This document shows, in pieces, positions 24,206 to 49,150 of a DNA stretch of 64,000 nucleotides. Position numbers and translations under genes: made by a program. Below the pieces are notes generated by a model, which worked only from the letters and a program-made list of their open reading frames with translations, had not been told where the DNA came from and ran no database searches. Source of the stretch: Candidatus Heimdallarchaeota archaeon (GTDB lineage Archaea; Asgardarchaeota; Heimdallarchaeia; JABLTI01); NCBI GenBank assembly GCA_030614005.1, contig JAUWKS010000003.1, positions 1,354 to 65,353 of the forward strand, read 5' to 3'. Within the stretch, counting starts at the first letter, position 1. The number at the start of each line of letters is the position of its first letter.

Positions 24206-26887
24206 TTAATCTTCAGGGGGTATTGAATCCTCTTCAGCTTGCGAAGTTTCTTCTAAAGCTTTTTGTGCTTTAGCTATATTATCTTCTTTATTATCTTCTT
24301 CCTTAGAAAATTCCATTTCACGTTCAACTAAAACATCTAGAATTTTAAGTGAAAGCGTTTGGCAATGATCAATAATTCGTTCTGCTTCTAAAGTATCAAC
24401 ATAGAGTTGTTCCTCAGAGCCTTTGATTAATGGAAGAATAATTGAATTCCAAATCCCTTTGGCTTCTGTGAAGAGTATTTGCGCATCAGTAGCAAATTCA
24501 GTTAATCCTTCTCGAGATGCTGTATCTAAGGTATGAGGAGTCATTTTTTTGTTTAATAAATCCTCTAATTCTTTTTCATACCCTAATAAAATAGTGATAG
24601 TCTTTTTCATTTCTTCTTTCTTTTGATCAATGACTGAAGGAGCTACTTCTTCTCTCTTCTTTGGAAGGTCAATTGTTAGCTCTTGAACTGGTTCCTCTGG
24701 TACCTCCGTTGGAATATCTGCTGCAAGCTCTGTTTCAGAAATAACCAATGTATCAGCATCCTCTTGACTTGATCTCATTGTCTCGTCAAATCGTTTCTTT
24801 GCTGCTACTTCGATATTATCTCGTTCAGTTTTCTCCCAGGACATTTTGCGACCTTTAGCCTCTTCACCAGCAAACAATTCTGATTCTTGTCGTTCTAATT
24901 CTTTTTTATGTGAAGACTTCTTAGGTCTGAACTGTCTAGCAACTAGAAATGAGAACGTTAAGAATAATGCAATTGTTGCTACGCAGATTATTACTATGAA
25001 CATAATTTGAGCGTAATCAATGGGTTCAGCGACGCTTGGGGGGAAAGACTCTGGATCTAAAGGATCAGTACCATAATTTACTTCAATACCATCATTAAAA
25101 CCATCCCCGTCGGTATCTGGATTTGTAGGGTCGGTCCAAATACGTGATTCAAAATCAGTTGTGAGACCATCCCCGTCTAGATCTAAATCAACGTTATCAG
25201 CAACAAGTGGATTTAACCCAAACTTAACTTCATACCCATCAGAGAGAGTGTCTCCATCCGAATCAAAATTAAGTGGATCAGTTTGATAATCATTAACTTC
25301 TTCTCCATCTAATAGAAAGTCACCATCTGTATCTGCTAGATGAGGATCCGTTCCTTCTTGATATTCTTCAAGATTTGTTAACCCATCTTCATCAGCATCA
25401 ACAGAAGCATCTGTGCTATTTGTTGGATTAAGATTTTCTAAGATTTCATAATCATCAGGCATACCATCGGAGTCTGTATCACTTAGCAGTGGATTTGTTC
25501 CGTAGATTAAAATTTCATTTCCATCTGAGATGGTATCTCCGTCTGTATCACTTAGTAGTGGATTAGTTCCATAAATTGCTTCATCTAAATCAGAAAGTCC
25601 GTCTCCGTCCGTATCGATGGAACCATAGACAATATATGCTTCTGTTGTAAGTTGGTATCGTTCTACATAGGCAATGTAATAACTACCAAACTTATCAATT
25701 GTGATTGATGGATCATGAGCGATACTAGAGGATGAGCTTATTCTTTTTTCTAAACCCCAATTATTAGCAGCATTTTTCTGTTTAAGATAGACTAGTGAAT
25801 CTCCGGAAATATCTGATTCAAATACAACAATACTATTACCTTTTTGATCTACAGCAATTCCGAAATCACTATCATCAACTGCATAGGAATGAATGGATGT
25901 TGGTGAAGACCAAGCACCTGCTGCAGCTTTTGCTTGAGCAGTAATGTAATAGATATTGTTGGTTGTTCCATTATCTCTGAAAATAACTTCGATATTTTTA
26001 CTATAATTGTTAAAGGCAATTACGGGGTCAATAGGCGAGTAAGCGACATTAGTGATTTTCTCTTCAGACGTCCAAACTGATCCGTTCTCTGAGTAGCAAT
26101 AATATAATTCTTGCTCACTTGCTCTGCTATCTGACCAGATTAAATGAAGCGTATCGTTGTTATCAACCGTTAAACCGAGCTGTGTTCCAGCAGCAATTTC
26201 TGCTCCGTTAGTAATTCGGATAATTGGTGTATCCCAAAGACCTGTTGTAGCATTATATTTTGTATAATAAAGATCTCCTAGAGCATTATCAGTTGTGTCT
26301 CTCCATACTAAATGTACCAAACCAACACTATCAGTTATTGTCATTGGATTTTCAGCATCACCACTGTTTGCTGTTAGACTAGTTTTTGCTCCAATAGTAA
26401 AATCATCTTCAACAATTCTTTCTTGCAACTCAAAATCATCCAGAGGAGCTTCATCCTCCTCAAACACAAAATGAATGGATCCGTTAAAATCTGGAGTAGG
26501 ATTGTAGCCACTTGGTAGTGCAGCTAACACAGTATCAATTACTAATGGATCTGACCAAGAACTGCTACTATTACCAATAGAGAAATAGATAGTACTTACT
26601 GGGCTTGTATCTGGATTGATAATATCGATCCATGAAACTCCTACCATTCCTGTTAAAGGACTATAGCTTACTCGAGAATGAGATGAATTTGTTCCTGTAT
26701 TAGAAATTCTTTCACCATCAGTAACAATGACTGCATTTGGATTGTATGTGACTGCTAATGGTTCTTCAAAATCTAAAGGACTAACTCCAATAGTATTTGG
26801 TGATTCATCAAACCCCTGAATAGCAATTGGTAGTACTAAACAAATAAACAAAACAAAAATAAAGGTAAGATAAGTTAACCTTTTCAT
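24206..26887 (-). CDS. Type-I membrane surface protein with an Asp-box-like beta-propeller, TSP3 calcium-binding repeats, one TM helix and a cytoplasmic helical tail of about 270 aa
   Basis: ATG at 26887 gives the signal peptide MKRLTYLTFIFVLFICLVLPIAIQG. Repeated ...LHLIW.D / ...W[ST]... blades, e.g. YYCYSENGSVWTSEE. Many DTDGDGLSD / DSDGDTLSDGYE (DxDxDGxxDxxE) repeats. TM IMFIVIICVATIALFLTFSFLV followed by RQFRPKK and a long charged tail. Confidence 0.6.
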   Translation of the reverse strand: MKRLTYLTFIFVLFICLVLPIAIQGFDESPNTIGVSPLDFEEPLAVTYNPNAVIVTDGERISNTGTNSSHSRVSYSPLTGMVGVSWIDIINPDTSPVSTIYFSIGNSSSSWSDPLVIDTVLAALPSGYNPTPDFNGSIHFVFEEDEAPLDDFELQERIVEDDFTIGAKTSLTANSGDAENPMTITDSVGLVHLVWRDTTDNALGDLYYTKYNATTGLWDTPIIRITNGAEIAAGTQLGLTVDNNDTLHLIWSDSRASEQELYYCYSENGSVWTSEEKITNVAYSPIDPVIAFNNYSKNIEVIFRDNGTTNNIYYITAQAKAAAGAWSSPTSIHSYAVDDSDFGIAVDQKGNSIVVFESDISGDSLVYLKQKNAANNWGLEKRISSSSSIAHDPSITIDKFGSYYIAYVERYQLTTEAYIVYGSIDTDGDGLSDLDEAIYGTNPLLSDTDGDTISDGNEILIYGTNPLLSDTDSDGMPDDYEILENLNPTNSTDASVDADEDGLTNLEEYQEGTDPHLADTDGDFLLDGEEVNDYQTDPLNFDSDGDTLSDGYEVKFGLNPLVADNVDLDLDGDGLTTDFESRIWTDPTNPDTDGDGFNDGIEVNYGTDPLDPESFPPSVAEPIDYAQIMFIVIICVATIALFLTFSFLVARQFRPKKSSHKKELERQESELFAGEEAKGRKMSWEKTERDNIEVAAKKRFDETMRSSQEDADTLVISETELAADIPTEVPEEPVQELTIDLPKKREEVAPSVIDQKKEEMKKTITILLGYEKELEDLLNKKMTPHTLDTASREGLTEFATDAQILFTEAKGIWNSIILPLIKGSEEQLYVDTLEAERIIDHCQTLSLKILDVLVEREMEFSKEEDNKEDNIAKAQKALEETSQAEEDSIPPED

Positions 26888-27153
26888 TCCAGCTAAAGTA
26901 ATTTTTGATGACACTTTTCAGACTTCCTACTCAGTTTAGTATTTAGACTATGGGAAAAAAAAGCTTTTTATAGTGAACATTAGAGGTAAAATGATAAGAT
27001 ATCAGTTTAGTAGCTAATTGATAGTGCAAAGCTATTTTCATTCCTAGTTAATTTAAAGAACGGAGTATAGGAAAACTTCTTAAAACAATTTCAAGGGTTG
27101 GAGAAATAGTTAATAAACACTTTGTTGTGCAAATAGAAAATAAGGTGCAAATA

Positions 27154-30225: not shown

Positions 30226-31380
30226 TTGTTTTTAGAATTTTCTAATAACCAGAAGGTAATGATTGATAGTAAGAATGTCAAAATACCACTAAAAGTAAAC
30301 GCAATTGTGACACATGCGCATTCAGATCACTTTGCAGCGATGAATTCGTATTCTCCAACATTTGCAACACAAGCAACAATTGATCTTTTCAACAATTTAA
30401 AGAAAACAAAAACACGAAGTAATTTTATCCCAGTAGAATTTAATGAACAATTAAAACTACAACCTGACACACCAGATGTGAAAATTTCTTTCATACCGTC
30501 GGGACATATTCTTGGATCTGCATCTGTAATCGTTGAAAATGATAATAGCAGATTACTATTCTCAGGAGATGTAGGAGGGAAGGGACAATTAACTTCATTA
30601 GCACCACTGAAAGCTGTTCAAGCAGATATTCTGGTTGTAGAAGCAACGTTTGGTTCTCCGGAATTAGTTTTCCCATCTCGAGAAGAAATTTCAATGGACA
30701 TATTGAAATGGTCGGCAAATGTCATAAAAGAAAATAAGAACGTGCTATTTTCTGCAGGAAGATTAGGCTCCTCACAAGAATTGATTAAATTATTTAATAA
30801 CCTGACAAATCTAAATGTCGTAACGCATGGAGAAGTAACTCAGCTATCTGAAATCTATCAAAAACATGGAGTAAAACTGGCTTTCCACGATTCAAAATCA
30901 GAGGAAGGAAAGGAAATACTAAGAAACGGAGAGGCAATAATTATTCAACCTCGAGGGAAAAAAATCGTTCCGTATTTTATAACAGAACATGTGGAGTGTA
31001 AAACTGCAATAGTAACAGGAATGGCTACAAGATTTCAATACAGAAATTACGACGCATCATTTCCGTTGTCTTCGCATGCGAACTTTAACGAATTAATAGA
31101 CTATATAAGAGAAGTATCGCCAGAATTGGTTTTCACAATATATGGTCTCGAGAAAAAACTCGCAGAAGCAATATCAAGAGAGTTAGATATTCCAGCAATT
31201 CCGCTAAAAGATAAAACACCGAATGCAATACAAAAAACAAGTGAAAAAATTGCTGCGGAACAAAATATACGAAAAAACCTAGAAAGGGAAAAAATACCCC
31301 TTAAGAAAATTGAGAGCAAAGTTGTTTCCAAAGAAAAGAAAGAAATAACCTTAGATGATTTTTTCAAACAAGATGACTAG
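30226..31380 (+). CDS. Metallo-beta-lactamase-fold hydrolase of the beta-CASP family (RNase J / aCPSF2-like, no KH domains)
   Basis: HxHxDH (THAHSDH), PSGH, FSGDVG, VVEATFG (like the ExTYG motif) and C-terminal SSHAN (beta-CASP motif C). TTG start; HxHxDH is unusually close to the N-terminus. Confidence 0.55.
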   Translation: MFLEFSNNQKVMIDSKNVKIPLKVNAIVTHAHSDHFAAMNSYSPTFATQATIDLFNNLKKTKTRSNFIPVEFNEQLKLQPDTPDVKISFIPSGHILGSASVIVENDNSRLLFSGDVGGKGQLTSLAPLKAVQADILVVEATFGSPELVFPSREEISMDILKWSANVIKENKNVLFSAGRLGSSQELIKLFNNLTNLNVVTHGEVTQLSEIYQKHGVKLAFHDSKSEEGKEILRNGEAIIIQPRGKKIVPYFITEHVECKTAIVTGMATRFQYRNYDASFPLSSHANFNELIDYIREVSPELVFTIYGLEKKLAEAISRELDIPAIPLKDKTPNAIQKTSEKIAAEQNIRKNLEREKIPLKKIESKVVSKEKKEITLDDFFKQDD

Positions 31381-31401
31381 TTTTAGTGGCGCTGATTAAA
31401 T

Positions 31402-31845
31402 ATGGCTAGAATTTTTAAAATAGCGTTATCAAAAATCCAACCAAGTCAGCTCTATATCAGTGAGAAAAAATTAGCAAGTATAAAGGAAAAAATAACCAAA
31501 AACGGAATAGATGAATTAGAACCAATCCCGATAAAAAAATTAGGTGAGGATATAATCTATACTGATGGGCATACTCGTGCTTTTCTTGCCTATCAAAATG
31601 GCGACAAAGAAATTGCTGTTGAATGGGACGAAGATGATTTAGATTGGGAAATGTATGAAATATGTGTTCAATGGTGTAAAGATGAAGCAATTTATACTAT
31701 TGCTGATTTGCAAAAGAGAATTGTTCCACATAAAAAATATGAAGTGGTTTGGTATAAGCGATGTGATACATTGCACGCGGAAATAGATCTGAAGAGAGCA
31801 CAAAAAAAACAAAAACGAATAAAAACGACAAAAAAAAACTTATAA
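31402..31845 (+). CDS. ParB/Sulfiredoxin-superfamily (ParB-like nuclease domain) protein
   Basis: N-terminal I..IQPSQLYIS followed by YTDGHTRAFLAY ([DG]-G-x-x-R signature of the ParB/Srx fold); 21 nt downstream of the beta-CASP gene on the same strand. Confidence 0.4.
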   Translation: MARIFKIALSKIQPSQLYISEKKLASIKEKITKNGIDELEPIPIKKLGEDIIYTDGHTRAFLAYQNGDKEIAVEWDEDDLDWEMYEICVQWCKDEAIYTIADLQKRIVPHKKYEVVWYKRCDTLHAEIDLKRAQKKQKRIKTTKKNL

Positions 31846-31934
31846 CCTTTGAGAGCTTCTTTCTTTTAGTAAATTTAGTTTAATATCCGGGATATGTAAA
31901 TTTGCAAATTAAAAGAAAATTAATAGTTACAATA

Positions 31935-32895
31935 ATGTTACTTTGTTTTATAATTCCTCTATTTAGTTAAAATAGTATAACACCTCAACCAATGGTACAA
32001 AACGTTATCGGTGCATCATTGGAGTTAGAACAAAAGTGGAACTATACGACAAGTGGAATATCTGTAAGTGCAACACCAACACTGTTCGATTTATACGAAG
32101 ATGGAACAATGGACGTAATTTATGGAACTAATAAAGATGTGACTTGTCTTGATGACCAAGGAAATCTCAATTGGTCATATTACACTAATAGTGTAGTTAG
32201 GGGATCACTTGTTGTAGTTGACGTAGATAATGACTATAAACCAAACATTGTCGTTGGTGTTAGTGATAGTTTGCGATTTTTTGATTATGATGGTTCATAT
32301 ATGAGAAATACTGGAACTGGCTATATTATGGATGCCCCATCTATTGTTGATTTTGAAGGTGATGGAGAATGGGAATTCTTAGTACCAAGCTATCTATTCT
32401 ATGATGGTATTTACTGTATTAATAGTAATGGATCCATAAGATGGTCTTACACAGATATTTCATCACCTGGAACACCTGATAGAGTGTATGGTACTCCTAC
32501 TGCTTGTGATCTTAATGGAGATGGAGTAATTGAAGTTCTCTTTGGTTCATGGGATGGATATCTTTATTGTCTTAATGAAACTGGGCATTTCCAATGACAA
32601 TATTCTCGATGGAGAAGAAGTTATTGCTGGAGCAGATGGTTTTATTACCAATCCCAACAACGCGGATACCGATGGCGATGGTATCGATGATGACATAGAA
32701 ATTGGCAATGGCACCGATCCAACCGATTCTAGTGACCCACCCGTAGAGACTCCAACTCCTACCACCACTCCTACAAATACTACTCCTACAGGCGAAGGCT
32801 CATTCATTGGTGGTTTTGTTAGTTTAGGTATTGTTTTATCTACTGCCTTATTTATCATAGCTTCAGTAGAACGTCGAAAGAAATATTACAAATGA
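31935..32895 (+). pseudogene. Decayed paralog of the beta-propeller/TSP3 surface-protein family: in-frame stop near the N-terminus, +1 frameshift near 32580-32595, PGF-CTERM-like C-terminus
   Basis: ATG 31935 encodes hydrophobic MLLCFIIPLFS, then an in-frame TAA (31968-31970), then the ORF 31992..32597 (beta-propeller-like ...DGDGVIEVLFGSWDGYLYCLNETG). Frame 1 continues at 32530..32895 with TSP3 motifs (NADTDGDGIDDDIEIGNGTDPTD), a Thr/Pro linker, and GGF plus a hydrophobic helix plus ERRKK. Confidence 0.4.
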
Positions 32896-32985
32896 AAGAG
32901 AAGAATCTCTTTCCATTTTTTTCTTTTTATTAATCGGTTTTTCCGTACTCTCTATACTGTACTTTTACAATTTTGGTTTTGTGAG

Positions 32986-33513
32986 TTACTTTGATTTTGG
33001 ATCTCTTTTTTCCTTACCTTTATTTAAATCAATAACTTCTTCTTTTGTTTGAGTGATTGGTGATACATCTTGGAATCTTCGATTTGTTACAACATAAAGT
33101 TCAGCTATACCTTTTTCTGTGAAATTTTTAACCATGCGACCTGAATGATGACCAAAGGGCGCAGGATATTGAACATCTCGGAAAGTTAATCGATAATATG
33201 TTGCAAGATGTGCCCATTCATTAAGTTCATCAGGATGCTTGACAGATTTAGGAGCTGTTTCTGCTAAGCCAATCCAATCGTACCAAGCATGTGCATCTTC
33301 AGGGTCACCAGAGGCACGATCTGTACTTTGGTCCATAGTACTCCCGCTGTAATTTGCTGTGATTTTAATACATAACCATTTACCGACAAGTGCAATCACT
33401 CTGTCAGAAGTACATGGTCCATCTTCATCGAAAGCGGAACCCCATTCACTTTCCACATCCTTTACAAGTTTCTTAATTATGAATTTTTCTAGTTCTGAAA
33501 TATCAATAGGCAT
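32986..33513 (-). CDS. Hypothetical His/Trp-rich protein (175 aa), locally GC-rich, probably foreign
   Basis: Clean ATG ORF; GC is about 45-50% over 33240-33360 against about 32% in the neighbouring genes; no confident family assignment (HAWYDW, WAHLATYY, FGHHSGRM). Confidence 0.5.
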   Translation of the reverse strand: MPIDISELEKFIIKKLVKDVESEWGSAFDEDGPCTSDRVIALVGKWLCIKITANYSGSTMDQSTDRASGDPEDAHAWYDWIGLAETAPKSVKHPDELNEWAHLATYYRLTFRDVQYPAPFGHHSGRMVKNFTEKGIAELYVVTNRRFQDVSPITQTKEEVIDLNKGKEKRDPKSK

Positions 33514-33692
33514 TGATTTGACTCCTTAATTTTATAGTAATATATTCACTTGCCAGAAAACAAATAGAATTCGCACTTAATTAGGATGAGTTCTAGTAAA
33601 AATACTTTGTGAGTAGGAATAAATACCTCCAAAAGTATCTCTCTTACAAATAATTTACTAAAAAGTAATTACTCTCTATCGATGTTCTATTG

Positions 33693-34550
33693 TTAATGTT
33701 CGATTTTTCCATATTTGACATCTTTTGCTTTTACAACTTCAACATTACGTGTTGAGCACCCATCTTTGATGATTTGAATTAAGGTCGCATTCAAGCTACT
33801 ACGATCAATTATCGCCCATTTAACTTCCTCAATTGTTTTATCAATCATTTGTTCTACTATTGTTTGAGTGAGGTGTTCTTTGTGATATTTTGGTAGTATG
33901 TGACCGATTGCAACTGGTGTTAATTCCATTAATTCATTAAACCGGGTAGTGTAATGTCCACCACCAAAACAAATACTGGGAATAATTTCCTCTTCATCTT
34001 TTTGCAAACAAATTTTCATCAGAGTATTAGCAACAGCTTGTAAAGCTGATTTGTTATTGTATTCGACTTCTGTGCTCCCTACTTCAACATAGATTAATGG
34101 TGTTTTTAGATTGGTTGGTCCATGGTGCGTTGCTTCTACTGTAACGTCAAAATCTGTTAATGCTAATTTCTCTTGTTCTTTCAGAAGGTTCAGATAAGCT
34201 TCTCTAATTGCTCGAGTGCTTCCATATGCTAATTCCAAAGGATTGCCACCATGACTATTATCAGAGCTAAGATTTCCAGTAATATGCGTTAATAGGCTTG
34301 GTTTATTTGCTCCACTTTGATGACGTGAACCAAATAGCAATAGATCTGCTTCAAGTTTATCACAATGGTCTGCATGGATAACATCTTTCGTTGAATACAC
34401 TAATCTGATATCTTTATACTTGTAAATTGGTGTTCCATCAAATGTTTCTTCAGTTTGCTCGAAGGACCAATTTTCTAATAACTTTTGACGAATATTTCTT
34501 CCGCAAATATTTTGATCAGTAGTTATTATAACTGGTTTTTTGATATTCAT
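33693..34550 (-). CDS. Archaeal-type D-aminoacyl-tRNA deacylase (DtdA-like)
   Basis: About 285 aa with ATHHGP and GGGHYT motifs, as remembered for the archaeal DtdA family; assigned by motif recall only. Confidence 0.5.
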   Translation of the reverse strand: MNIKKPVIITTDQNICGRNIRQKLLENWSFEQTEETFDGTPIYKYKDIRLVYSTKDVIHADHCDKLEADLLLFGSRHQSGANKPSLLTHITGNLSSDNSHGGNPLELAYGSTRAIREAYLNLLKEQEKLALTDFDVTVEATHHGPTNLKTPLIYVEVGSTEVEYNNKSALQAVANTLMKICLQKDEEEIIPSICFGGGHYTTRFNELMELTPVAIGHILPKYHKEHLTQTIVEQMIDKTIEEVKWAIIDRSSLNATLIQIIKDGCSTRNVEVVKAKDVKYGKIEH

Positions 34551-34564
34551 TTGAGCTTGACCTT

Positions 34565-35482
34565 CTAATTCAAAGTTTTATTTTTAGCGTTAATAAAATC
34601 ATCAACTTCATCTTTTCTAGGCATGCCATCTCGAGCATTTGAGAGTGTTATTTGTAACGCTGCACACGCGGCAGCATATTTTCCACAGTCAGAGAGTGAA
34701 ATGTTTTGTTGGTAAGAATGAATAAATCCTGCTGCATACGCATCTCCCGCCCCTGTTGTATCAACAACGGGCACTTCATAAGAAGGTATTTTCTGCACTC
34801 CATCTCGGGAAAGAATGTAAGACCCTTCAGGACCAAGCGTTACATTCAAAATTGTTGTCTCGCTCAATCTAAGACTGTCTAATTTTTCTTTTGTTGGTAA
34901 AAATCCATATGCTTTTTCAAAAGCAATTTTATTTAGAAAAACAAGTGAATAATTTTGTATTATTTCTTGAAGTACTTGACTTGATTCAGTCATTAATTCT
35001 CCGCCAAAATCAATGGAAGAGACGATTGATTTCTTCTTACAAACTTGAGCAATTTTTAGTGCTACTTTAGCTGAAACGCTAGAAGCATGCACAATTTTAA
35101 CATTTGAAAATAATTGCCCAGTGATCTCTTTTGGTGAGAGCTTAGTATTTGCATCTCGGTATCCAATTTTTACTGTTTGCCCTTCTTTATCAACTAAAAT
35201 GATGACAAAACCAGTAGCATAAGCTTCTTCTTTGATTACTCTTGAAACATCGATTTTTTCATCGATTAGAGAAGATAATCCTAGTTTACCATTTTGGTCA
35301 TCCCCCACATGACCGAACAATGAAACTTTTGAGCCTAAACGTGAGAGTCCTACAGCAAAATTACAGGCTCCCCCACCAGGTACAATAGCAAGATTCGAAA
35401 CAATTACCTTATCATCCGGACTAGGAAGACGTGGTACTTGACAAATAAGATCAACATTGATATTTCCGATTGTTAAAATCAA
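34565..35482 (-). CDS. PfkB-family carbohydrate/nucleoside kinase (ribokinase-like)
   Basis: N-terminal GGGACNFAVGLSRLG and C-terminal DTTGAGDAYAAGF motifs of the ribokinase superfamily. Confidence 0.7.
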   Translation of the reverse strand: MILTIGNINVDLICQVPRLPSPDDKVIVSNLAIVPGGGACNFAVGLSRLGSKVSLFGHVGDDQNGKLGLSSLIDEKIDVSRVIKEEAYATGFVIILVDKEGQTVKIGYRDANTKLSPKEITGQLFSNVKIVHASSVSAKVALKIAQVCKKKSIVSSIDFGGELMTESSQVLQEIIQNYSLVFLNKIAFEKAYGFLPTKEKLDSLRLSETTILNVTLGPEGSYILSRDGVQKIPSYEVPVVDTTGAGDAYAAGFIHSYQQNISLSDCGKYAAACAALQITLSNARDGMPRKDEVDDFINAKNKTLN

Positions 35483-35606
35483 ACCTTCATCCGAACCTGT
35501 TTTCTTTAGTAATAATTCACAGCATAAGTAACACTAATTAAAATTAATGGTAAAATCGGAACAAAAAGAAAAAGAATCATCGGGGTTAAACCCCAAATGA
35601 ATACTA

Positions 35607-36566
35607 TTAATCGCTCATAAGAGCGAGCATAACTGCTTTTTGTGCATGTTTTCTATTTTCAGCTTCATCAAAAACTACACTTTGTTTGCTATCAATAACT
35701 TCATCTGTTACTTCGTAACCTCTGTGAGCCGGCAAACAGTGTAAGAAAATAGCATCATTCTTTGCGTGAGCCATCAATTCTTTGTTGACGGTGAAATCCT
35801 TGAATGCTTTGAGTCGTATCTCTTTCTGTGATTCATCACCCATAGAAATCCAGGTGTCAGTGTAAACAACATCTGCGTCTTTAACTCCTGCTGGAATGTC
35901 ACTGGTAATCTCTAATTTGGTACCTATTTTATCAGCAATTACTTGAACTTTCTTAGTAATTTCTGCATCTGGTTGATAGTCATCTGGACAAACTATTGAA
36001 ACGTCCATACCCATTTTTGTACAACCAATCATTAAGGAGTGTGCAACATTGTTGCCATCGCCAACATAAACGAGTTTTAGTCCTTTTAGCTTTCCTTTGT
36101 GCTCTTCAATAGTTTGAAGGTCAGCCAATATTTGGCACGGATGATAAAGATCACAGAGACCATTTATCACAGGAATTGTTGCAAATTCGGCCATTTCTGT
36201 GAGTGTTTTATGTTTGTAGACTCGAGCCATTATTCCACCAAGATATCTCGAGAGAACTTGAGCAGTATCAGAAGGTGCTTCTCCTGTTCCGACAAGTTGT
36301 GTGTCTCTAAAACTTAGAAAGAGAGGTTGTCCTCCTAATTCCCAAATGCCGGTTTCAAAGGAAACTCTGGTGCGGGTAGAAGTTTTTTCAAACATCATAC
36401 CTAAGCTTTTCTTTAATGGTTTGCGATCTGGATGACCGCCATTTTTCTTGTATTCTACCTTTAATTCAACCCCAAGGTCTAAGAAATATTGGATCTCTTC
36501 AGGGGTGTAATCAAAAAGTGTAAGCATATGTCGCCCTTTAAAATTCATAATTATTCCTCGTATCAT
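35607..36566 (-). CDS. argF: Ornithine carbamoyltransferase
   Basis: STRTRVSFE carbamoyl-phosphate motif and HCLPAHRGYEV (HCLP favours OTCase over ATCase, which has HPLP); about 319 aa. Confidence 0.75.
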   Translation of the reverse strand: MIRGIIMNFKGRHMLTLFDYTPEEIQYFLDLGVELKVEYKKNGGHPDRKPLKKSLGMMFEKTSTRTRVSFETGIWELGGQPLFLSFRDTQLVGTGEAPSDTAQVLSRYLGGIMARVYKHKTLTEMAEFATIPVINGLCDLYHPCQILADLQTIEEHKGKLKGLKLVYVGDGNNVAHSLMIGCTKMGMDVSIVCPDDYQPDAEITKKVQVIADKIGTKLEITSDIPAGVKDADVVYTDTWISMGDESQKEIRLKAFKDFTVNKELMAHAKNDAIFLHCLPAHRGYEVTDEVIDSKQSVVFDEAENRKHAQKAVMLALMSD

Positions 36567-36996: not shown

Positions 36997-39900
36997 ATGC
37001 AATTGATGCACAAAAATAGGTACCCCCCGCAATTAGTATTAATTGGCAGTTTATTCATATTTTTAATGTTATTCAATTCAGCTGTAAATGCTATCGAAGT
37101 GGAAGTTGGCAGTGAGGTAGGAATGACAGCAATACCGCCACAAATGGGTGGGGACTCTTTTGAGACACAAGCAACGAAAATCAATGGTTATGATTGGGAA
37201 GATGAGGAGGTTTTTGAAACATTTGCTCCGCTAAATGATTTGAAAATAGCTCTTGATGGCGATGAAAACGTTCATGTGTTTTGGTCTGGTGTAGAAAATG
37301 GTGATTATTATCTATTCCATAAAATTAGATACAAAGTAAATGAAACTTGGAGTGAAAGAGAAAGTTTAGGTACAACCTCTTCTGAAACTGGTGCAGTATT
37401 AGATGTCCAGACAGATGATGCCGGTATAATCCATCTTACCTGGCAACAAAATTCAATAGTAAGATACAGACGTTACAATTATGGTATTTGGGAAAATCCA
37501 CAGGTTGTCAGTAGTGGTATACATCCAACTATTGATATTAGTACAACAAACGGTGCTCCAAATGTAATTTACAAAAGAAAAGTGGATAGTAGGTATATAG
37601 ATTATAATTATTATTTTACTGAATATAATACTTCTACTGAAATTTGGAATGCAGAACAAATCGCTATGGGTGACTATTCTCCAAATGGAGGGTCATCTTA
37701 TGCTTATTCACTTGTAAAAGATGGAGAATTTGACAAACCGTATATTTTTACAAGCTTTCTAGATAGCTATTGGTATTGGGATGATTCATCAGGTTATTGG
37801 GTTAGAAAAGTAGTTGATACAATCAACTATAAAATACTGAGTCGAGATAGCGAGACTTCAACTTTCTCTAATGATGGATTTGATATTGAAAGTGCAATAA
37901 GCGTTACTGTGCCAGTAGTAACAAAACCACTGCTAATCAATAGTCCATCTGATGGGTTATTTGCTTTTTATAATAAACCAAAAGATGATGGAACTTATGA
38001 GATTACCTATGCTAAAAAAGCTGGCTCTTACTGGAGCAATCCAATAACACTATCTGATAAAGCTGCTCTGAAGTGTGAAATGACCGCAGTAGTGGATCAA
38101 TTTGGAAAAATAACCCTTATTTGGAATTATGTACACCAAACAATGATAGAAGGACAACTAAGATCGTCCGCTGAATTATATATGAAAACATTTTCTCCAT
38201 ACACACAAACATGGTCAGATGATTTACCATTAAATACTATAGAAATGTATACTCACTTTCCATCAATGACTCAAGATACAGATGGTAATTTGTACTTGGT
38301 ATACATCGATATAAATATCACTGATTCATCAGAGAAGAAATTAATTTTTAGAAAAGGTTGGACAGATTCGGATGAAGATGGGTTAACAAATAATGTGGAA
38401 ACAGAGATACATGGAACTGACCCTTATGACCCCGATTGCGATGATGATCAAATGCTGGATGGAGAAGAAATAGCATTAGGTTTTGATCCTTTTAACCCCG
38501 ATGAAGATTCCGATGGAATGGCAGATGGGTATGAAGTGCACAATGATTTAGATCCTTATAGTGACGATTCCTTGGGTGATTATGACTCAGATAACTTGAC
38601 AAATATGGAAGAATTCTTAGCTGACACATTTGCTAATGATAACGATACTGACGATGACGAAGTGAGTGATTATAACGAGTTAAAGGTGTATTTCAGTAAC
38701 CCGAAAAACCCTGATTCAGACGAAGATGGATTAAGCGATGGAATAGAAATAAACATTGTTGGTTCTAATCCAAATTCTAATGATACTGACAATGATACTA
38801 TGTTAGATTATTATGAGTGGACTAATGAGTTGAATCTGACTCTAAATGATACTTTTGAAGATTTTGACGGAGATGGATTGTATAATATTTATGAATTCTT
38901 ATACAATATTAAGGCGAATAAAGCAGATACCGAGGGGGATGGTTTGGGTGATTATGAAGAAGTAATGATTTATTTCACTATACCAAATAAATTCGATACG
39001 GATGACGATGGACTTTGGGATGGTATTGAAGTATACACCTATGGGACAAACCCATTATTACCGGATACAGATAGTGACTTTTTGTTAGATAAAACAGAAA
39101 TTGATGCCGGTTTAAATCCCGTCGATAACGACACAGATAATGATTTAATGCTAGATGGTTATGAATATATTTTTGGTCTTGATTACTTTGATGATTCAGA
39201 TGCAAATTTGGATTATGATGGTGATACTCTTACAAATCTAGAAGAATCTTATTTATGGACAAATCCATTTGATGATGATTCTGATGGCGATAAAATAGTT
39301 GACAATTATGAGCTTGAATTAGGTAGTGATCCTGCAAAATATGATACCGACGACGACGGTTTAAACGATTATAATGAGATATTTGTAATTGGTTCTGATT
39401 TTGATAATAATGATACCGATAGCGATGGTTTGATAGATGGCGATGAAGTATTTATTTATCAATCAAATCCACTCATTGTTGATTCCGATGGTGACACTCT
39501 CGATGATGGTGATGAAGTATATATTTATCACACAAATCCTGCTTCTACAGACACCGATGGTGATCTTCTTGCTGATAATTTAGAGTTAGATAACAATTCA
39601 AATCCACTGGTCGTTGATACTGATTTAGATGGTATGGATGATTATTTTGAATGGCTCTATGGACTTGATCCCACAGAAGATGATTCACTAATTGATACCG
39701 ACCAAGATGGTGTGCCAAACTTCGAAGAGTATCTTCATAATACTAATCCTTTGGTTAATGATACAGATCTGGATGGCTTAACTGATTTCGATGAAATTTA
39801 TGTTTATTATACTGCTCCTGATTCCAACGATACCGATGAAGACTCTCTTGCAGACTACGATGAAATAATGGTTTATGGAACATCCCCTCATGATCCAGAC

Positions 39901-40260
39901 AGCGATGACGATGGCATTTTAGATGGAGAAGAAGTTAGGATTGGTACTGATCCCACAGAAATTGATTCTGATAAGGATGGTGTTTCCGATGGTCAAGAGC
40001 TTTTAGATGGAACAGATCCCACTGACTTCTATGACAACAAAGATATCAGACGCTCGCGCTTACTGATCGTCACCTTTTCTGTTATTGTTGGAGGCATTCT
40101 TGTGTATTATATTGGTCCCTTCCTTATCATAAAATTATCACGTAATGAAGAAACTAAATGGGTTCAAGAAGGACTTTTATGGCGAAAACGGAAAGGAACT
40201 GAAATCCTCGAAACGTCACCTCATTCTGAAGAAATTTCGGAATCGAATATGGAAGAATAA
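36997..40260 (+). CDS. Large type-I membrane surface protein with an Asp-box-like beta-propeller, about 25 TSP3 calcium-binding repeats, a C-terminal TM helix and a short cytoplasmic tail
   Basis: Signal peptide ([20 protein letters not shown]); W-containing blade motifs ([30 protein letters not shown]); TSP3 repeats from about residue 455 to 1010 ([36 protein letters not shown]...); [26 protein letters not shown]; tail of about 45 aa. Confidence 0.6.
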
Positions 40261-47092: not shown

Positions 47093-49150
47093 CTATTGTT
47101 TTCTTCTTTTTATTGAAACCGTTGCAACCAAAATTATTGCAAAAATGCTGGTAACGAAAACATATCCAGGAATAAATCCTGAAGCACTTGTTGGAGGTAT
47201 TGTAATATATACTTCACCCGGATTTGGTGTATCTGTTATGAAATCTACAGAACAATCATCTGTGTCGTGATTTGCTGGGTCTCTTTGTAGGGTCAAAGAT
47301 TCATCCATATCACCTGTCCAAGCAGTTATCGATGGAAGACTTCCAGTACCCCAAACAACTGCATCTACCGATGAGGTTGTAGGCGTATCTAATTTCAGAT
47401 AATCACCTGTATTTGCAAGAGTAATGGAACCATAGGTGAAATCTGCTGGGTATGTATAAGCTCCAAGAGCAGTCATTTGTTCTGTGAATGCAGTGGCATT
47501 TCGAGCAAATATCAAAATGTCTCCTGCTGTAAACTCTGTTCCTGCTGGTATAACATAGGTTGCTCCATTATCTGAAACTTCCCATCCTCCAATACCAACA
47601 TCGAAAGAGAACCCATTATACAACTCGAAGAACTCTCCTTCCGGTTCAGGTGTATCTGCATCAAATCTGACTTCAGAAAAGAGTAACAACCATTCAACAC
47701 TATTTATGAGATTAACATCAATTTCATACTCAATAGTAGATAGATCAGATTTCGTACCCACTAGTTTCAATGTATATAATCCATCAGCATAAATTGAAGA
47801 ATCTAAATTATAGGTAACAACTGCAGAAGGATTCGTCCAAGTATTAGCTAATGTATCTCCAACGAATAATTCACCTTTAATGTAAGTATCAATATAGAAT
47901 CCGGCATCTATAACATAAGTTCCTTCAATAACTTCATGCTCTTCTATGTCAATAATTTCCACTACGCCAGTATATCCTGTAGGAACTTCACTATTTGCCC
48001 AGTCCCAATCAAAGACTGTTTTGAAATATGATGCAACATTGGTGTTTTTAACAATCGCGCCTGCTTCTCGATTATTCACTACGGAATTGTTAGACCAATT
48101 AATACTCGAGACTGCAGTAACTTCTCCATCAGCACTAACATATTTGTTATGATTATGACCGAGTCCTTTGAAGAATCGTATCTCAATATCATTTGACAAC
48201 AGAACTTCTGTAACATTCGCATTAGGCGTTCCCGGTTCTGGTATCAATACTCTAACATCAACTCCTCTATTTGCTGCAGCAATAATATCATCTAATAAAT
48301 AACAATCAAACTTAATGTATTGCTGTGAAATATCAAGTGTTGTTGTTGCATTATCTATGAGTGAAGATAATAACTGATAGCTATTATCGGGTGCGAATAT
48401 TGGTGTGACTTCCATATATTCATTTATAACTTCAGGAGTGTCAAATGGATGAGTGTATGTTCCTCCTGTTTCATTTCCTTGTAATAAACCAAGATGAGGT
48501 TCAGTACCTGCATACAGATTGCCAATACCTTGGTCATCGAAGAAAACATTTTCATAAAACGCCGCTATGCTTGCATCTTCAAATGCAAATCCTAATTCCC
48601 TATTGGTTCTTGCATAGTTTACTTGTGGAATACTCGAAGGAGCCCAGTTCCCTGAATAAACAAAGGTTTCAAGACCATCCACAATCCAGAATTTAGCATG
48701 AGTAAAGGTAAAACTAGAACTACACCAAGTAACTATTACTCCAGCAGCATCAAGTCGAAAAGCAGCTTCTTCTGTGTAATCATCTTCGTACCCACTAACC
48801 CGATCATGGGATAATGAAACTTGAACATCTACACCTCTATCTTGAGCAGCAATTAATCGATTGACTAATGGTTCACTCGAGAGTGTATAAACTTCGAGAT
48901 AGAATGACGTTACTGAATCATTTAATGCTTTCATAATCACTTCATAAGCTGAATCCGGCCCGACGAAACAAGTGACCTTGCTCACTCCCGTGAACGTTTG
49001 GGTAGGAATTGCATCGGGGTTTACCCATGGTTCAGAAATATTTATTGGATCTTTCGCAACAACAACTGTTACAGATGGGTTGAGTACCATTAACACTGTA
49101 GGCAGCATTAGCATAGTTGCTACAAAAATCACTAGTCTATTTATTTTCAT
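47093..49150 (-). CDS. Secreted phospholipase-D-superfamily protein (two HKD motifs) with a C-terminal lamin-tail domain and a PGF-CTERM-like membrane anchor
   Basis: Signal peptide MKINRLVIFVATMLMLPTVLMVL; HKD motifs THAKFWIVDG...GNWAPSS and HNHNKYVSADG...SINWSNNS; lamin-tail-domain signature EFFELYNGFSFDVGIGGWEVSD; C-terminus ...IPGYVFVTSIFAIILVATVSIKRRKQ preceded by a Thr/Pro/Ser linker. Confidence 0.6.
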   Translation of the reverse strand: MKINRLVIFVATMLMLPTVLMVLNPSVTVVVAKDPINISEPWVNPDAIPTQTFTGVSKVTCFVGPDSAYEVIMKALNDSVTSFYLEVYTLSSEPLVNRLIAAQDRGVDVQVSLSHDRVSGYEDDYTEEAAFRLDAAGVIVTWCSSSFTFTHAKFWIVDGLETFVYSGNWAPSSIPQVNYARTNRELGFAFEDASIAAFYENVFFDDQGIGNLYAGTEPHLGLLQGNETGGTYTHPFDTPEVINEYMEVTPIFAPDNSYQLLSSLIDNATTTLDISQQYIKFDCYLLDDIIAAANRGVDVRVLIPEPGTPNANVTEVLLSNDIEIRFFKGLGHNHNKYVSADGEVTAVSSINWSNNSVVNNREAGAIVKNTNVASYFKTVFDWDWANSEVPTGYTGVVEIIDIEEHEVIEGTYVIDAGFYIDTYIKGELFVGDTLANTWTNPSAVVTYNLDSSIYADGLYTLKLVGTKSDLSTIEYEIDVNLINSVEWLLLFSEVRFDADTPEPEGEFFELYNGFSFDVGIGGWEVSDNGATYVIPAGTEFTAGDILIFARNATAFTEQMTALGAYTYPADFTYGSITLANTGDYLKLDTPTTSSVDAVVWGTGSLPSITAWTGDMDESLTLQRDPANHDTDDCSVDFITDTPNPGEVYITIPPTSASGFIPGYVFVTSIFAIILVATVSIKRRKQ

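Follow-up and report, generated by a model that had tools for sequence, protein, structure and literature searches.

Near the middle of the window, by which we mean the whole 64,000-nucleotide stretch analysed here (G+C 33%), two short open reading frames follow one another in different frames of the plus strand and together resemble a single surface-protein gene. The question they raise is whether this is a gene that has died, an intact gene that has been misread, or a gene that is still used in some unusual way. An earlier note on this DNA had described a decaying gene and had left a sequencing error, a true pseudogene and a phase-variable gene as possible causes. From the comparisons described below, we consider it highly probable that the locus is a pseudogene that arose by deletion and is decaying further, the remnant of a Candidatus Heimdallarchaeota surface protein of approximately 820 aa.

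The locus consists of an N-terminal half in frame 0 (positions divisible by 3) and a C-terminal half in the +1 frame, and every element noted earlier is present in the sequence. The signal peptide is encoded at 31902-31967 (MQIKRKLIVTIMLLCFIIPLFS), in frame 0 from a TTG start; a basic n-region followed by a hydrophobic core can be read directly from the sequence, and the segment aligns with the N-termini of three homologs, L005, L007 and L009 (homologous loci are given L numbers here, and database proteins P numbers). Homology places the start at the TTG at 31902, which is aligned to the start codon of L005, an ATG, and to the L009 N-terminus. From this TTG, frame 0 reads LQIKRKLIVTIMLLCFIIPLFS up to a TAA at 31968-31970. 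An ATG at 31935 opens the hydrophobic stretch MLLCFIIPLFS, which ends at the same TAA and lies in the same frame as the ORF at 31992-32597 (201 aa). Beyond the TAA, frame 0 continues as NSITPQPMVQNV... through four repeats of the blade motif D.DGDG...YC.N..G...W and ends with ...YCLNETGHFQ and a TGA at 32595-32597. This part (31971-32594) encodes blades 1-4 of a formerly 8-bladed PQQ-like/FG-GAP-like beta-propeller, with the individual blades at 32073-32180, 32202-32309, 32331-32450 and 32490-32594. The assignment draws on an AF2 model, on alignment to 8-blade homologs and on Pfam matches of the 201-aa ORF to Beta-prop_CGLA (PF25292; 54.7 bits against a cut-off of 26.8) and FG-GAP_3 (PF13517; 34.5 bits against 26.9).

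The +1 frame is open from 32530 and is homologous to relatives from 32597 to 32892. It begins with the last two TSP3 (Ca-binding DxDxDG) repeats at 32597-32715, read as DNILDGEEV...DTDGDGIDD, which align with residues 730-815 of the L009 protein and 650-746 of the L007 protein. The TSP3_bac HMM scores 17.3 bits on this remnant, under its 25-bit cut-off, and 25-90 bits, above the cut-off, on the intact homologs; the motif DTDGDGIDDDIE is present, and DTDGDGIDD is plainly visible. There follow the sequence DPTDSSDPP and the Thr/Pro-rich linker VETPTPTTTPTNTTPTGE (32716-32796), conserved in 12 tails of the family; a GSFIGGF motif with a C-terminal TM helix (32797-32868; family consensus G[SA][FL]IGGF(I/V)SL.IV.STA); and a basic tail, ERRKKYYK, with its TGA stop (32869-32895). 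The frame thus reads ...ISNDNILDGEEVIAGADGFITNPNNADTDGDGIDDDIEIGNGTDPTDSSDPPVETPTPTTTPTNTTPTGEGSFIGGFVSLGIVLSTALFIIASVERRKKYYK up to the stop at 32893-32895. A hairpin followed by a T-run at 32894-32913, terminator-like by consensus match only, may mark the original 3' end of the gene, and an Rfam scan of 31300-33700 returned a single match at chance level (E = 0.78). Both domain assignments of the earlier note, a beta-propeller in the N-terminal part and TSP3 repeats, Thr/Pro linker and TM-basic tail in the C-terminal part, are upheld by the Pfam matches, the alignments and the sequence itself.

The most informative comparison is with locus L009 (Logan SRR32546279), where the flanking gene order is conserved on either side and the position of the pseudogene is occupied by a single ORF of 822 aa. 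The shared order runs from ADP-forming acetyl-CoA synthetase (ACS), an MBL-fold hydrolase and a small ORF, through the gene itself, to dtdA, PfkB, OTCase and a large TSP3 protein, 1082 aa long in L009. A signal peptide opens the 822-aa protein, eight blades and about fourteen TSP3 repeats come next, and a Thr-rich linker leads into a tail ending ...GSLIGGIIALVVVFSTAFAVISLVERRNKYYK. In tblastn, residues 1-228 of this protein align to 31902-32594 of the window with 65% identity, reading through the TAA (E = 7e-92), and residues 730-815 align to 32596-32871 (E = 4e-12). Nucleotides 687-2188 of the L009 gene have no counterpart in the window, and because the missing 1502 nt amount to 3 x 500 + 2 (3n+2), the downstream part lies in the +1 frame. 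The deletion took blades 5-8, which are found neither at the locus nor anywhere else in the 64-kb window, together with most of the TSP3 stalk. At the junction, 32596|32597, the sequence is CAATG|ACAAT, with microhomology of 2-3 nt only, and the frame-0 TGA is assembled from both sides of it; the codon at this position is TGG (Trp) in intact orthologs, and TGG is what L004, L005, L007 and L009 have. On these alignments the frameshift is the scar of an internal deletion of approximately 1.5 kb, and as such it is irreversible and not phase-variable. The shift had earlier been placed at 32580-32595: the change of frame is real, and its true position is the junction, which itself creates the TGA at 32595-32597. 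We also considered a one-base insertion in the GGG at 32583-32585, which is ruled out, the GHFQ stretch being homologous coding sequence in L004, L007 and L009 and the TGA falling on a Trp codon.

Further single-frame homologs, non-syntenic and equally similar, were found in L005/L006 (720 aa), L007 (about 753 aa) and the database protein P0024 (702 aa); a search with the propeller alignment against GTDB genomes found no relative. Because both halves of the locus align to intact homologs that are read in a single frame, the +1-frame half is not a chance open frame. The earlier note had named alignment to an intact ortholog as the comparison that might reveal two independent genes, and against L009, L005, L007 and P0024 it came out in favour of one former gene. 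The reading frame is disrupted relative to the intact syntenic ortholog, and the suspicion of a decaying gene, a true pseudogene, is borne out by the deletion.

The two lesions differ in how well they are reproduced. The deletion junction is identical in four assemblies, namely that of the window, which lies on an NCBI contig of 115,547 bp, and three close relatives: L001 (ENA ERZ25746585; 99.2% identity to the window over 7.5 kb), L002 (Logan SRR22302358; 99.1% over 1.5 kb) and L012 (ENA ERZ4219663; 99.3% over 1.3 kb). L002 and L001 differ at 1 of 1507 bases and may stem from the same reads, so that the four assemblies represent at least two read sets; they fall into two haplotypes, with ten further differing sites inside the gene. 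The same junction in four assemblies, with only 2-3 nt of microhomology, indicates that the deletion and its frameshift are genuine and older than the split of these strains. An intact allele above 73% identity was not found among 5.8 billion proteins. The in-frame TAA described earlier within the signal peptide is indeed there at 31968-31970, in the window alone: L001, L002 and L012 have CAA (Gln), and L012 shows no other difference from the window within the gene. As a singleton the TAA is a weaker lesion than the deletion, and it is either a C-to-T mutation of very recent date or an error in the consensus of the metagenome-assembled genome (MAG).

The same gene has been broken in other lineages. 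L003 (371-1442) is syntenic, and the halves of its gene have approximately 86-90% DNA identity to L009, relative to which it is missing 1391 nt (3n+2), from the end of blade 3 to a TSP3 repeat in the middle of the stalk. L004 (1706-3659) is missing about 110 nt, out of frame, between blade 3 and the end of blade 4, and keeps the remaining blades and the stalk. Since the two large deletions (1502 and 1391 nt) cannot be derived from one another, there have been at least three independent events in this gene. All three result in a +1 shift, an outcome with a chance of about 1 in 9 given three out-of-frame deletions, and the common direction is therefore no evidence for a programmed shift. The frame-0 stop of L003 lies in the context UCC-UGA-U, which we take to be the sequence of the antizyme frameshift site. 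We rejected a common GATGG microhomology or shifty-stop motif as the origin of the three shifts, as the right ends of the junctions differ and the microhomology is 2-3 nt; TSP3 DNA is rich in GAT and GAC, and a TGA arises automatically when it is read one base off. It is conceivable that three out-of-frame deletions reflect selection for losing the protein, for instance escape from a virus that uses it as a receptor, although of the two novel readings that we entertain, this one and the one for the tail considered below, it is the weaker. A short contig, L008:1-909 (ENA ERZ23498359 scaffold_329838, 1354 bp), encodes P0023 (186 aa), in which a cytoplasmic-looking C-terminus, ...RVIELLKEYKVLADKDLELQQRVSLRQVKDFAKEV, is in frame with TSP3 repeats and the same tail as that of the pseudogene; the first 300 nt or so of this contig look compositionally different, and P0023 is either another deletion remnant of the family or the product of a chimeric contig.

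Substitutions within the gene were polarised with L003, L005, L007 and L009. In the comparison of the window with L001, 7 nonsynonymous changes and 1 nonsense change stand against 3 synonymous in this gene, whereas dtdA, pfkB and OTC together show 6 nonsynonymous against 12 synonymous; the direction is that expected of relaxed selection, but the numbers are small and the contrast is not formally significant (Fisher p = 0.06). Derived changes in L001 remove conserved Asp residues (DVDND to DVDNA, DLNGDG to NLNGDG, GTDPTD to GTNPTD) and alter the tail motif (SFIGGF to SFNGGF). Over the longer distance to L003, omega is 0.18 for the propeller part and 0.14 for the tail part, values which imply that purifying selection acted on the gene over most of the period after the split and that the deletions are recent. 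As a separate observation, dS between the window and L003 is 1.2-1.5 across 31902-32895, about 2.5-3 times that of the adjacent housekeeping genes within 33693-36566 (0.41-0.52), and it is also raised, to 0.70, in the neighbouring gene for a 1087-aa TSP3 protein. This pattern at surface-protein loci suggests allele exchange or faster turnover.

The N-terminal remnant retains a recognizable fold. Its AF2 model has a mean pLDDT of 78 and about 16 strands, and its best fold matches are the designed 4-blade Cake4 (6tjd; TMt 0.84) and a natural archaeal 8-blade propeller (3hxj; TMq 0.65). The intact ortholog, searched with phmmer, matches 3hxj at E = 5e-13 and v31Bagel8 at E = 1e-41. As modelled, the remnant is exactly the four-blade half of an 8-blade propeller; a closed ring of eight blades is not found in it, blades 1-4 alone being left. 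The closest known relatives are accordingly 3HXJ, a PQQ-like 8-bladed cell-surface beta-propeller of Methanococcus maripaludis, and the designed Cake, Bagel and Scone proteins, with BamB and YxaL more distant. The family shares with the 3HXJ group the blade motif D.DgDG..E....g.lYCl...G...W and, with 3HXJ, an archaeal host; it differs in that the window keeps only four blades and that the parent protein adds a long TSP3 stalk and a conserved TM anchor. For the stalk, the nearest comparison is with bacterial TSP3-repeat surface proteins (PF18884), such as CglD and MtsD of Myxococcus, in which tandem calcium-binding DxDxDGxxDxxE repeats likewise form a stalk. NCBIfam gives weak matches to CglD and MtsD, through the TSP3 repeats only and far under the family cut-offs, and those proteins differ in their bacterial host and in their other N- and C-terminal modules.

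From these parts we reconstruct the history as follows. The intact parent had a Sec-type signal peptide, an 8-bladed PQQ-like/FG-GAP-like propeller and a stalk of about 9-14 TSP3 repeats, which a Thr/Pro linker connected to a conserved TM helix ending in an ERRKKY tail. It was presumably secreted and held in the membrane by its C-terminus, and a Ca-stiffened, probably glycosylated stalk would have carried the propeller at its tip as a module for binding or adhesion. As the sequence shows, one deletion of about 1.5 kb (3n+2) at a site of minimal microhomology then fused the Trp codon that closes blade 4 to the penultimate TSP3 repeat, putting the anchor in the +1 frame behind a TGA made by the junction. 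Drift followed: strains with the deletion differ mainly by nonsynonymous changes, and the window's sequence adds the change from CAA to TAA in the signal peptide. A functional product is not to be expected from the window, where the sole ORF left (ATG 31992, 201 aa) would be half a propeller without a signal peptide; some residual function might persist in L001 and L012, where the signal peptide and four-blade ORF are intact, and the +1 ORF still runs open over 104 codons. The locus is a case of ordinary gene decay in an uncharacterised surface-protein family. Like other deletion pseudogenes of prokaryotic surface proteins, it combines an out-of-frame deletion with subsequent neutral-looking substitutions and a nonsense codon, and has intact orthologs in sister lineages; the only notable contrast is recurrence, with three lineages carrying different out-of-frame deletions in one gene.

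Four other explanations deserve weighing against decay by deletion. That stop and frameshift are both sequencing or assembly errors in a gene of one contiguous frame is very improbable. The source is a MAG, and the TAA is a single C/T difference confined to the window contig, with CAA in the otherwise identical L012, which would suit an error at that one base; the frame change, however, is no homopolymer indel but a 1502-nt deletion, its junction recurs in four assemblies from at least two read sets and two haplotypes, 2-3 nt of microhomology is far under assembler k-mer sizes, and among 5.8 billion proteins there is no intact allele above 73% identity. The frameshift is thus not the sequencing error that had been listed among the possible causes. 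Nor is there more than the slimmest chance of a phase-variable gene that switches by slippage. This is a surface-protein gene and a GGG run lies close by, at 32583-32585, but the frame changes at the 32596|32597 junction and not in that run, no repeat tract is found there, all four assemblies are identical at the junction, no strain has an in-frame variant, and a loss of 1502 nt cannot be switched back.

The remaining two alternatives would grant the broken gene a product. In one, ribosomes would shift by +1 at CAA-UGA-C and make a short anchored protein of four blades, two TSP3 repeats and the anchor, with the junction peptide HFQDNILDGEEV; skipping the U of UGA does give an in-frame ...GHFQ-DNILDGEEV... 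fusion, L003 (with its UCC-UGA-U) and L004 are also shifted by +1, and both halves have an omega of about 0.15 relative to L003. We nevertheless regard such programmed frameshifting as a most improbable account: conservation of the site is lacking, as each lineage shifts at its own deletion (1502 nt, 1391 nt and about 110 nt) and intact orthologs have no shift at all; GAT/GAC-rich TSP3 DNA yields a TGA automatically once its frame is off by one base; evolution that preceded the deletions accounts for the low omega; and the changes since then look neutral and include, in the window, an upstream nonsense codon. In the other, the deletion would have made two functional genes, one for a secreted half-propeller that dimerises to an 8-blade ring and one for a separately translated, tail-anchored TSP3 protein. 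Here it counts in favour that the remnant has exactly four of eight blades, that no structure matches it better than Cake4, a designed 4-blade fragment, that self-assembly of designed propeller fragments into complete propellers has been reported (bioRxiv 10.1101/2021.04.12.439409), and that L001 and L012 retain the signal peptide. Yet that signal peptide is interrupted in the window; L001, which keeps it, has acquired substitutions of Asp by Ala and by Asn within conserved blade motifs; a signal peptide is missing from the downstream ORF, whose only start codon is an internal TTG; and natural, non-symmetric blades would not be expected to close as a homodimer. A pair of functional genes is accordingly a highly doubtful proposition, and programmed frameshifting, phase variation and a functional split gene are all unlikely.

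Upstream of the pseudogene lie the ADP-forming acetyl-CoA synthetase, the MBL-fold hydrolase and a 147-aa ORF, and downstream a 175-aa ORF, dtdA (D-aminoacyl-tRNA deacylase), PfkB, OTCase and the 1087-aa TSP3 protein. The dtdA product falls into a 90%-identity cluster in which the members with a name are Candidatus Heimdallarchaeota archaeon, the name also borne by P0005, a related member of the surface-protein family. Neither the 147-aa nor the 175-aa ORF has a Pfam or PHROGs match. By eye, the small upstream ORF (31402-31845) has a DGHTR motif and is ParB/Srx-like. A poly-A run near its end (31820-31830) is one A shorter in the window and L012 than in L001 and L002, a difference that alters the C-terminus and the length of this ORF (147 aa vs 160 aa). 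The 175-aa ORF (32986-33513, minus strand) is an ORFan. The segment of approximately 700 bp that carries it (32974-33681) separates the pseudogene from dtdA; the window, L001 and L010 have this segment, the syntenic L003 and L009 lack it, and no direct repeats flanking the insertion were found. Two large TSP3-repeat proteins are encoded within the window, at 24206-26914 (minus strand, 902 aa) and at 36997-40260 (plus strand, 1087 aa). The broken gene had earlier been called a paralog of this neighbouring surface-protein family, a relationship that does not hold for its main domain: the N-terminal parts of the two large proteins weakly match BNR_4 and not the PQQ/FG-GAP propeller families, and the TSP3 repeats are all that they have in common with it. 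They also end differently, with a single TM helix followed by a long acidic cytoplasmic tail, a layout unlike the short ERRKKY tail.

The tail itself is of separate interest. An archaeosortase-substrate signal has been described as tripartite (PMC6098224), and the window tail follows that general plan, in which a Thr-rich linker leads to a motif, a TM helix and, at the extreme C-terminus, a basic cluster. The layout is shared with the PGF-CTERM/ArtA substrates of Euryarchaeota, for example the S-layer glycoprotein of Haloferax volcanii, which have a Thr-rich linker, a short Gly/Phe motif, a TM helix and a basic C-terminal cluster; archaeosortases are described for a subset of Euryarchaeota (PMC6098224). 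The tail cassette differs from those substrates in lacking both Pro-Gly-Phe and a match to a CTERM model. Neither PGF-CTERM (TIGR04126 / Pfam) nor any other CTERM model in NCBIfam and Pfam matched the window tail or five relatives at E <= 10. A conserved Pro-Gly-Phe before the TM helix is absent: the window has GSFIGGF, and the consensus of 12 tails, G[SA][FL]IGGF, has no conserved Pro. A scan of ten membrane and other ORFs, including multi-TM ORFs, within the 64-kb window found no archaeosortase, and a literature search for links between Asgard archaea and archaeosortase/PGF-CTERM sorting, or between Heimdallarchaeota and thrombospondin, returned nothing relevant. We therefore rejected membership of PGF-CTERM, given that no model matches, no Pro-Gly-Phe is conserved and no archaeosortase occurs among the window's multi-TM proteins, although 64 kb is too short a stretch to be decisive on this last point; of the PGF-CTERM-like end proposed earlier, the tripartite layout stands and the family assignment does not.

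The cassette is narrowly distributed. An index-free phmmer search with the 53-aa tail against 1.84 billion representatives found seven proteins only, and a word-indexed protein search with a 61-aa tail returned no candidates. Its passengers include the 8-blade PQQ-like propeller (P0024, P0004), SBP_bac_5 (P0025) and an LVIVD propeller (P0026), and P0027 is also among the carriers. Following the last TSP3 repeats, the consensus is GTDPTDP.D.P-(T/P)n-G[SA][FL]IGGF(I/V)SL.IV.STA....(V/I)ERR[KN]KY. It is thus a conserved unit in a Heimdallarchaeota lineage, found on at least three unrelated passenger domains, and, as a generic anchor would not require so high a degree of conservation, it may be a recognition signal specific to the lineage. 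We put forward tentatively, as a reading with a small chance of being right, that the cassette might be a lineage-specific Asgard sorting or anchoring signal for an unnamed processing enzyme, in which case it would be a functional analogue of PGF-CTERM/ArtA and not a member of that family. Elsewhere in the window, at 47093-49150 on the minus strand, a secreted PLD-like protein (two PLDc_2 domains) with a lamin-tail domain has a similar tripartite tail, SGFIPGY-TM-KRRKQ (PPTSASGFIPGYVFVTSIFAIILVATVSIKRRKQ). Judged by that resemblance, it is a second candidate for the same mode of anchoring, on an enzyme-like passenger.

For annotation, this means that the 201-aa database protein P0029 and the downstream ORF of 121 aa are both pieces of a single dead gene, and the locus should be flagged as a pseudogene. 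For the organism, it shows the fast turnover of surface proteins in this Heimdallarchaeota lineage, in which three lineages have broken the gene and sister lineages keep it intact. The recurrent loss and the conserved tail cassette are modest leads, and the cassette is the only one of wider reach, as a testable candidate for an anchoring or sorting signal.
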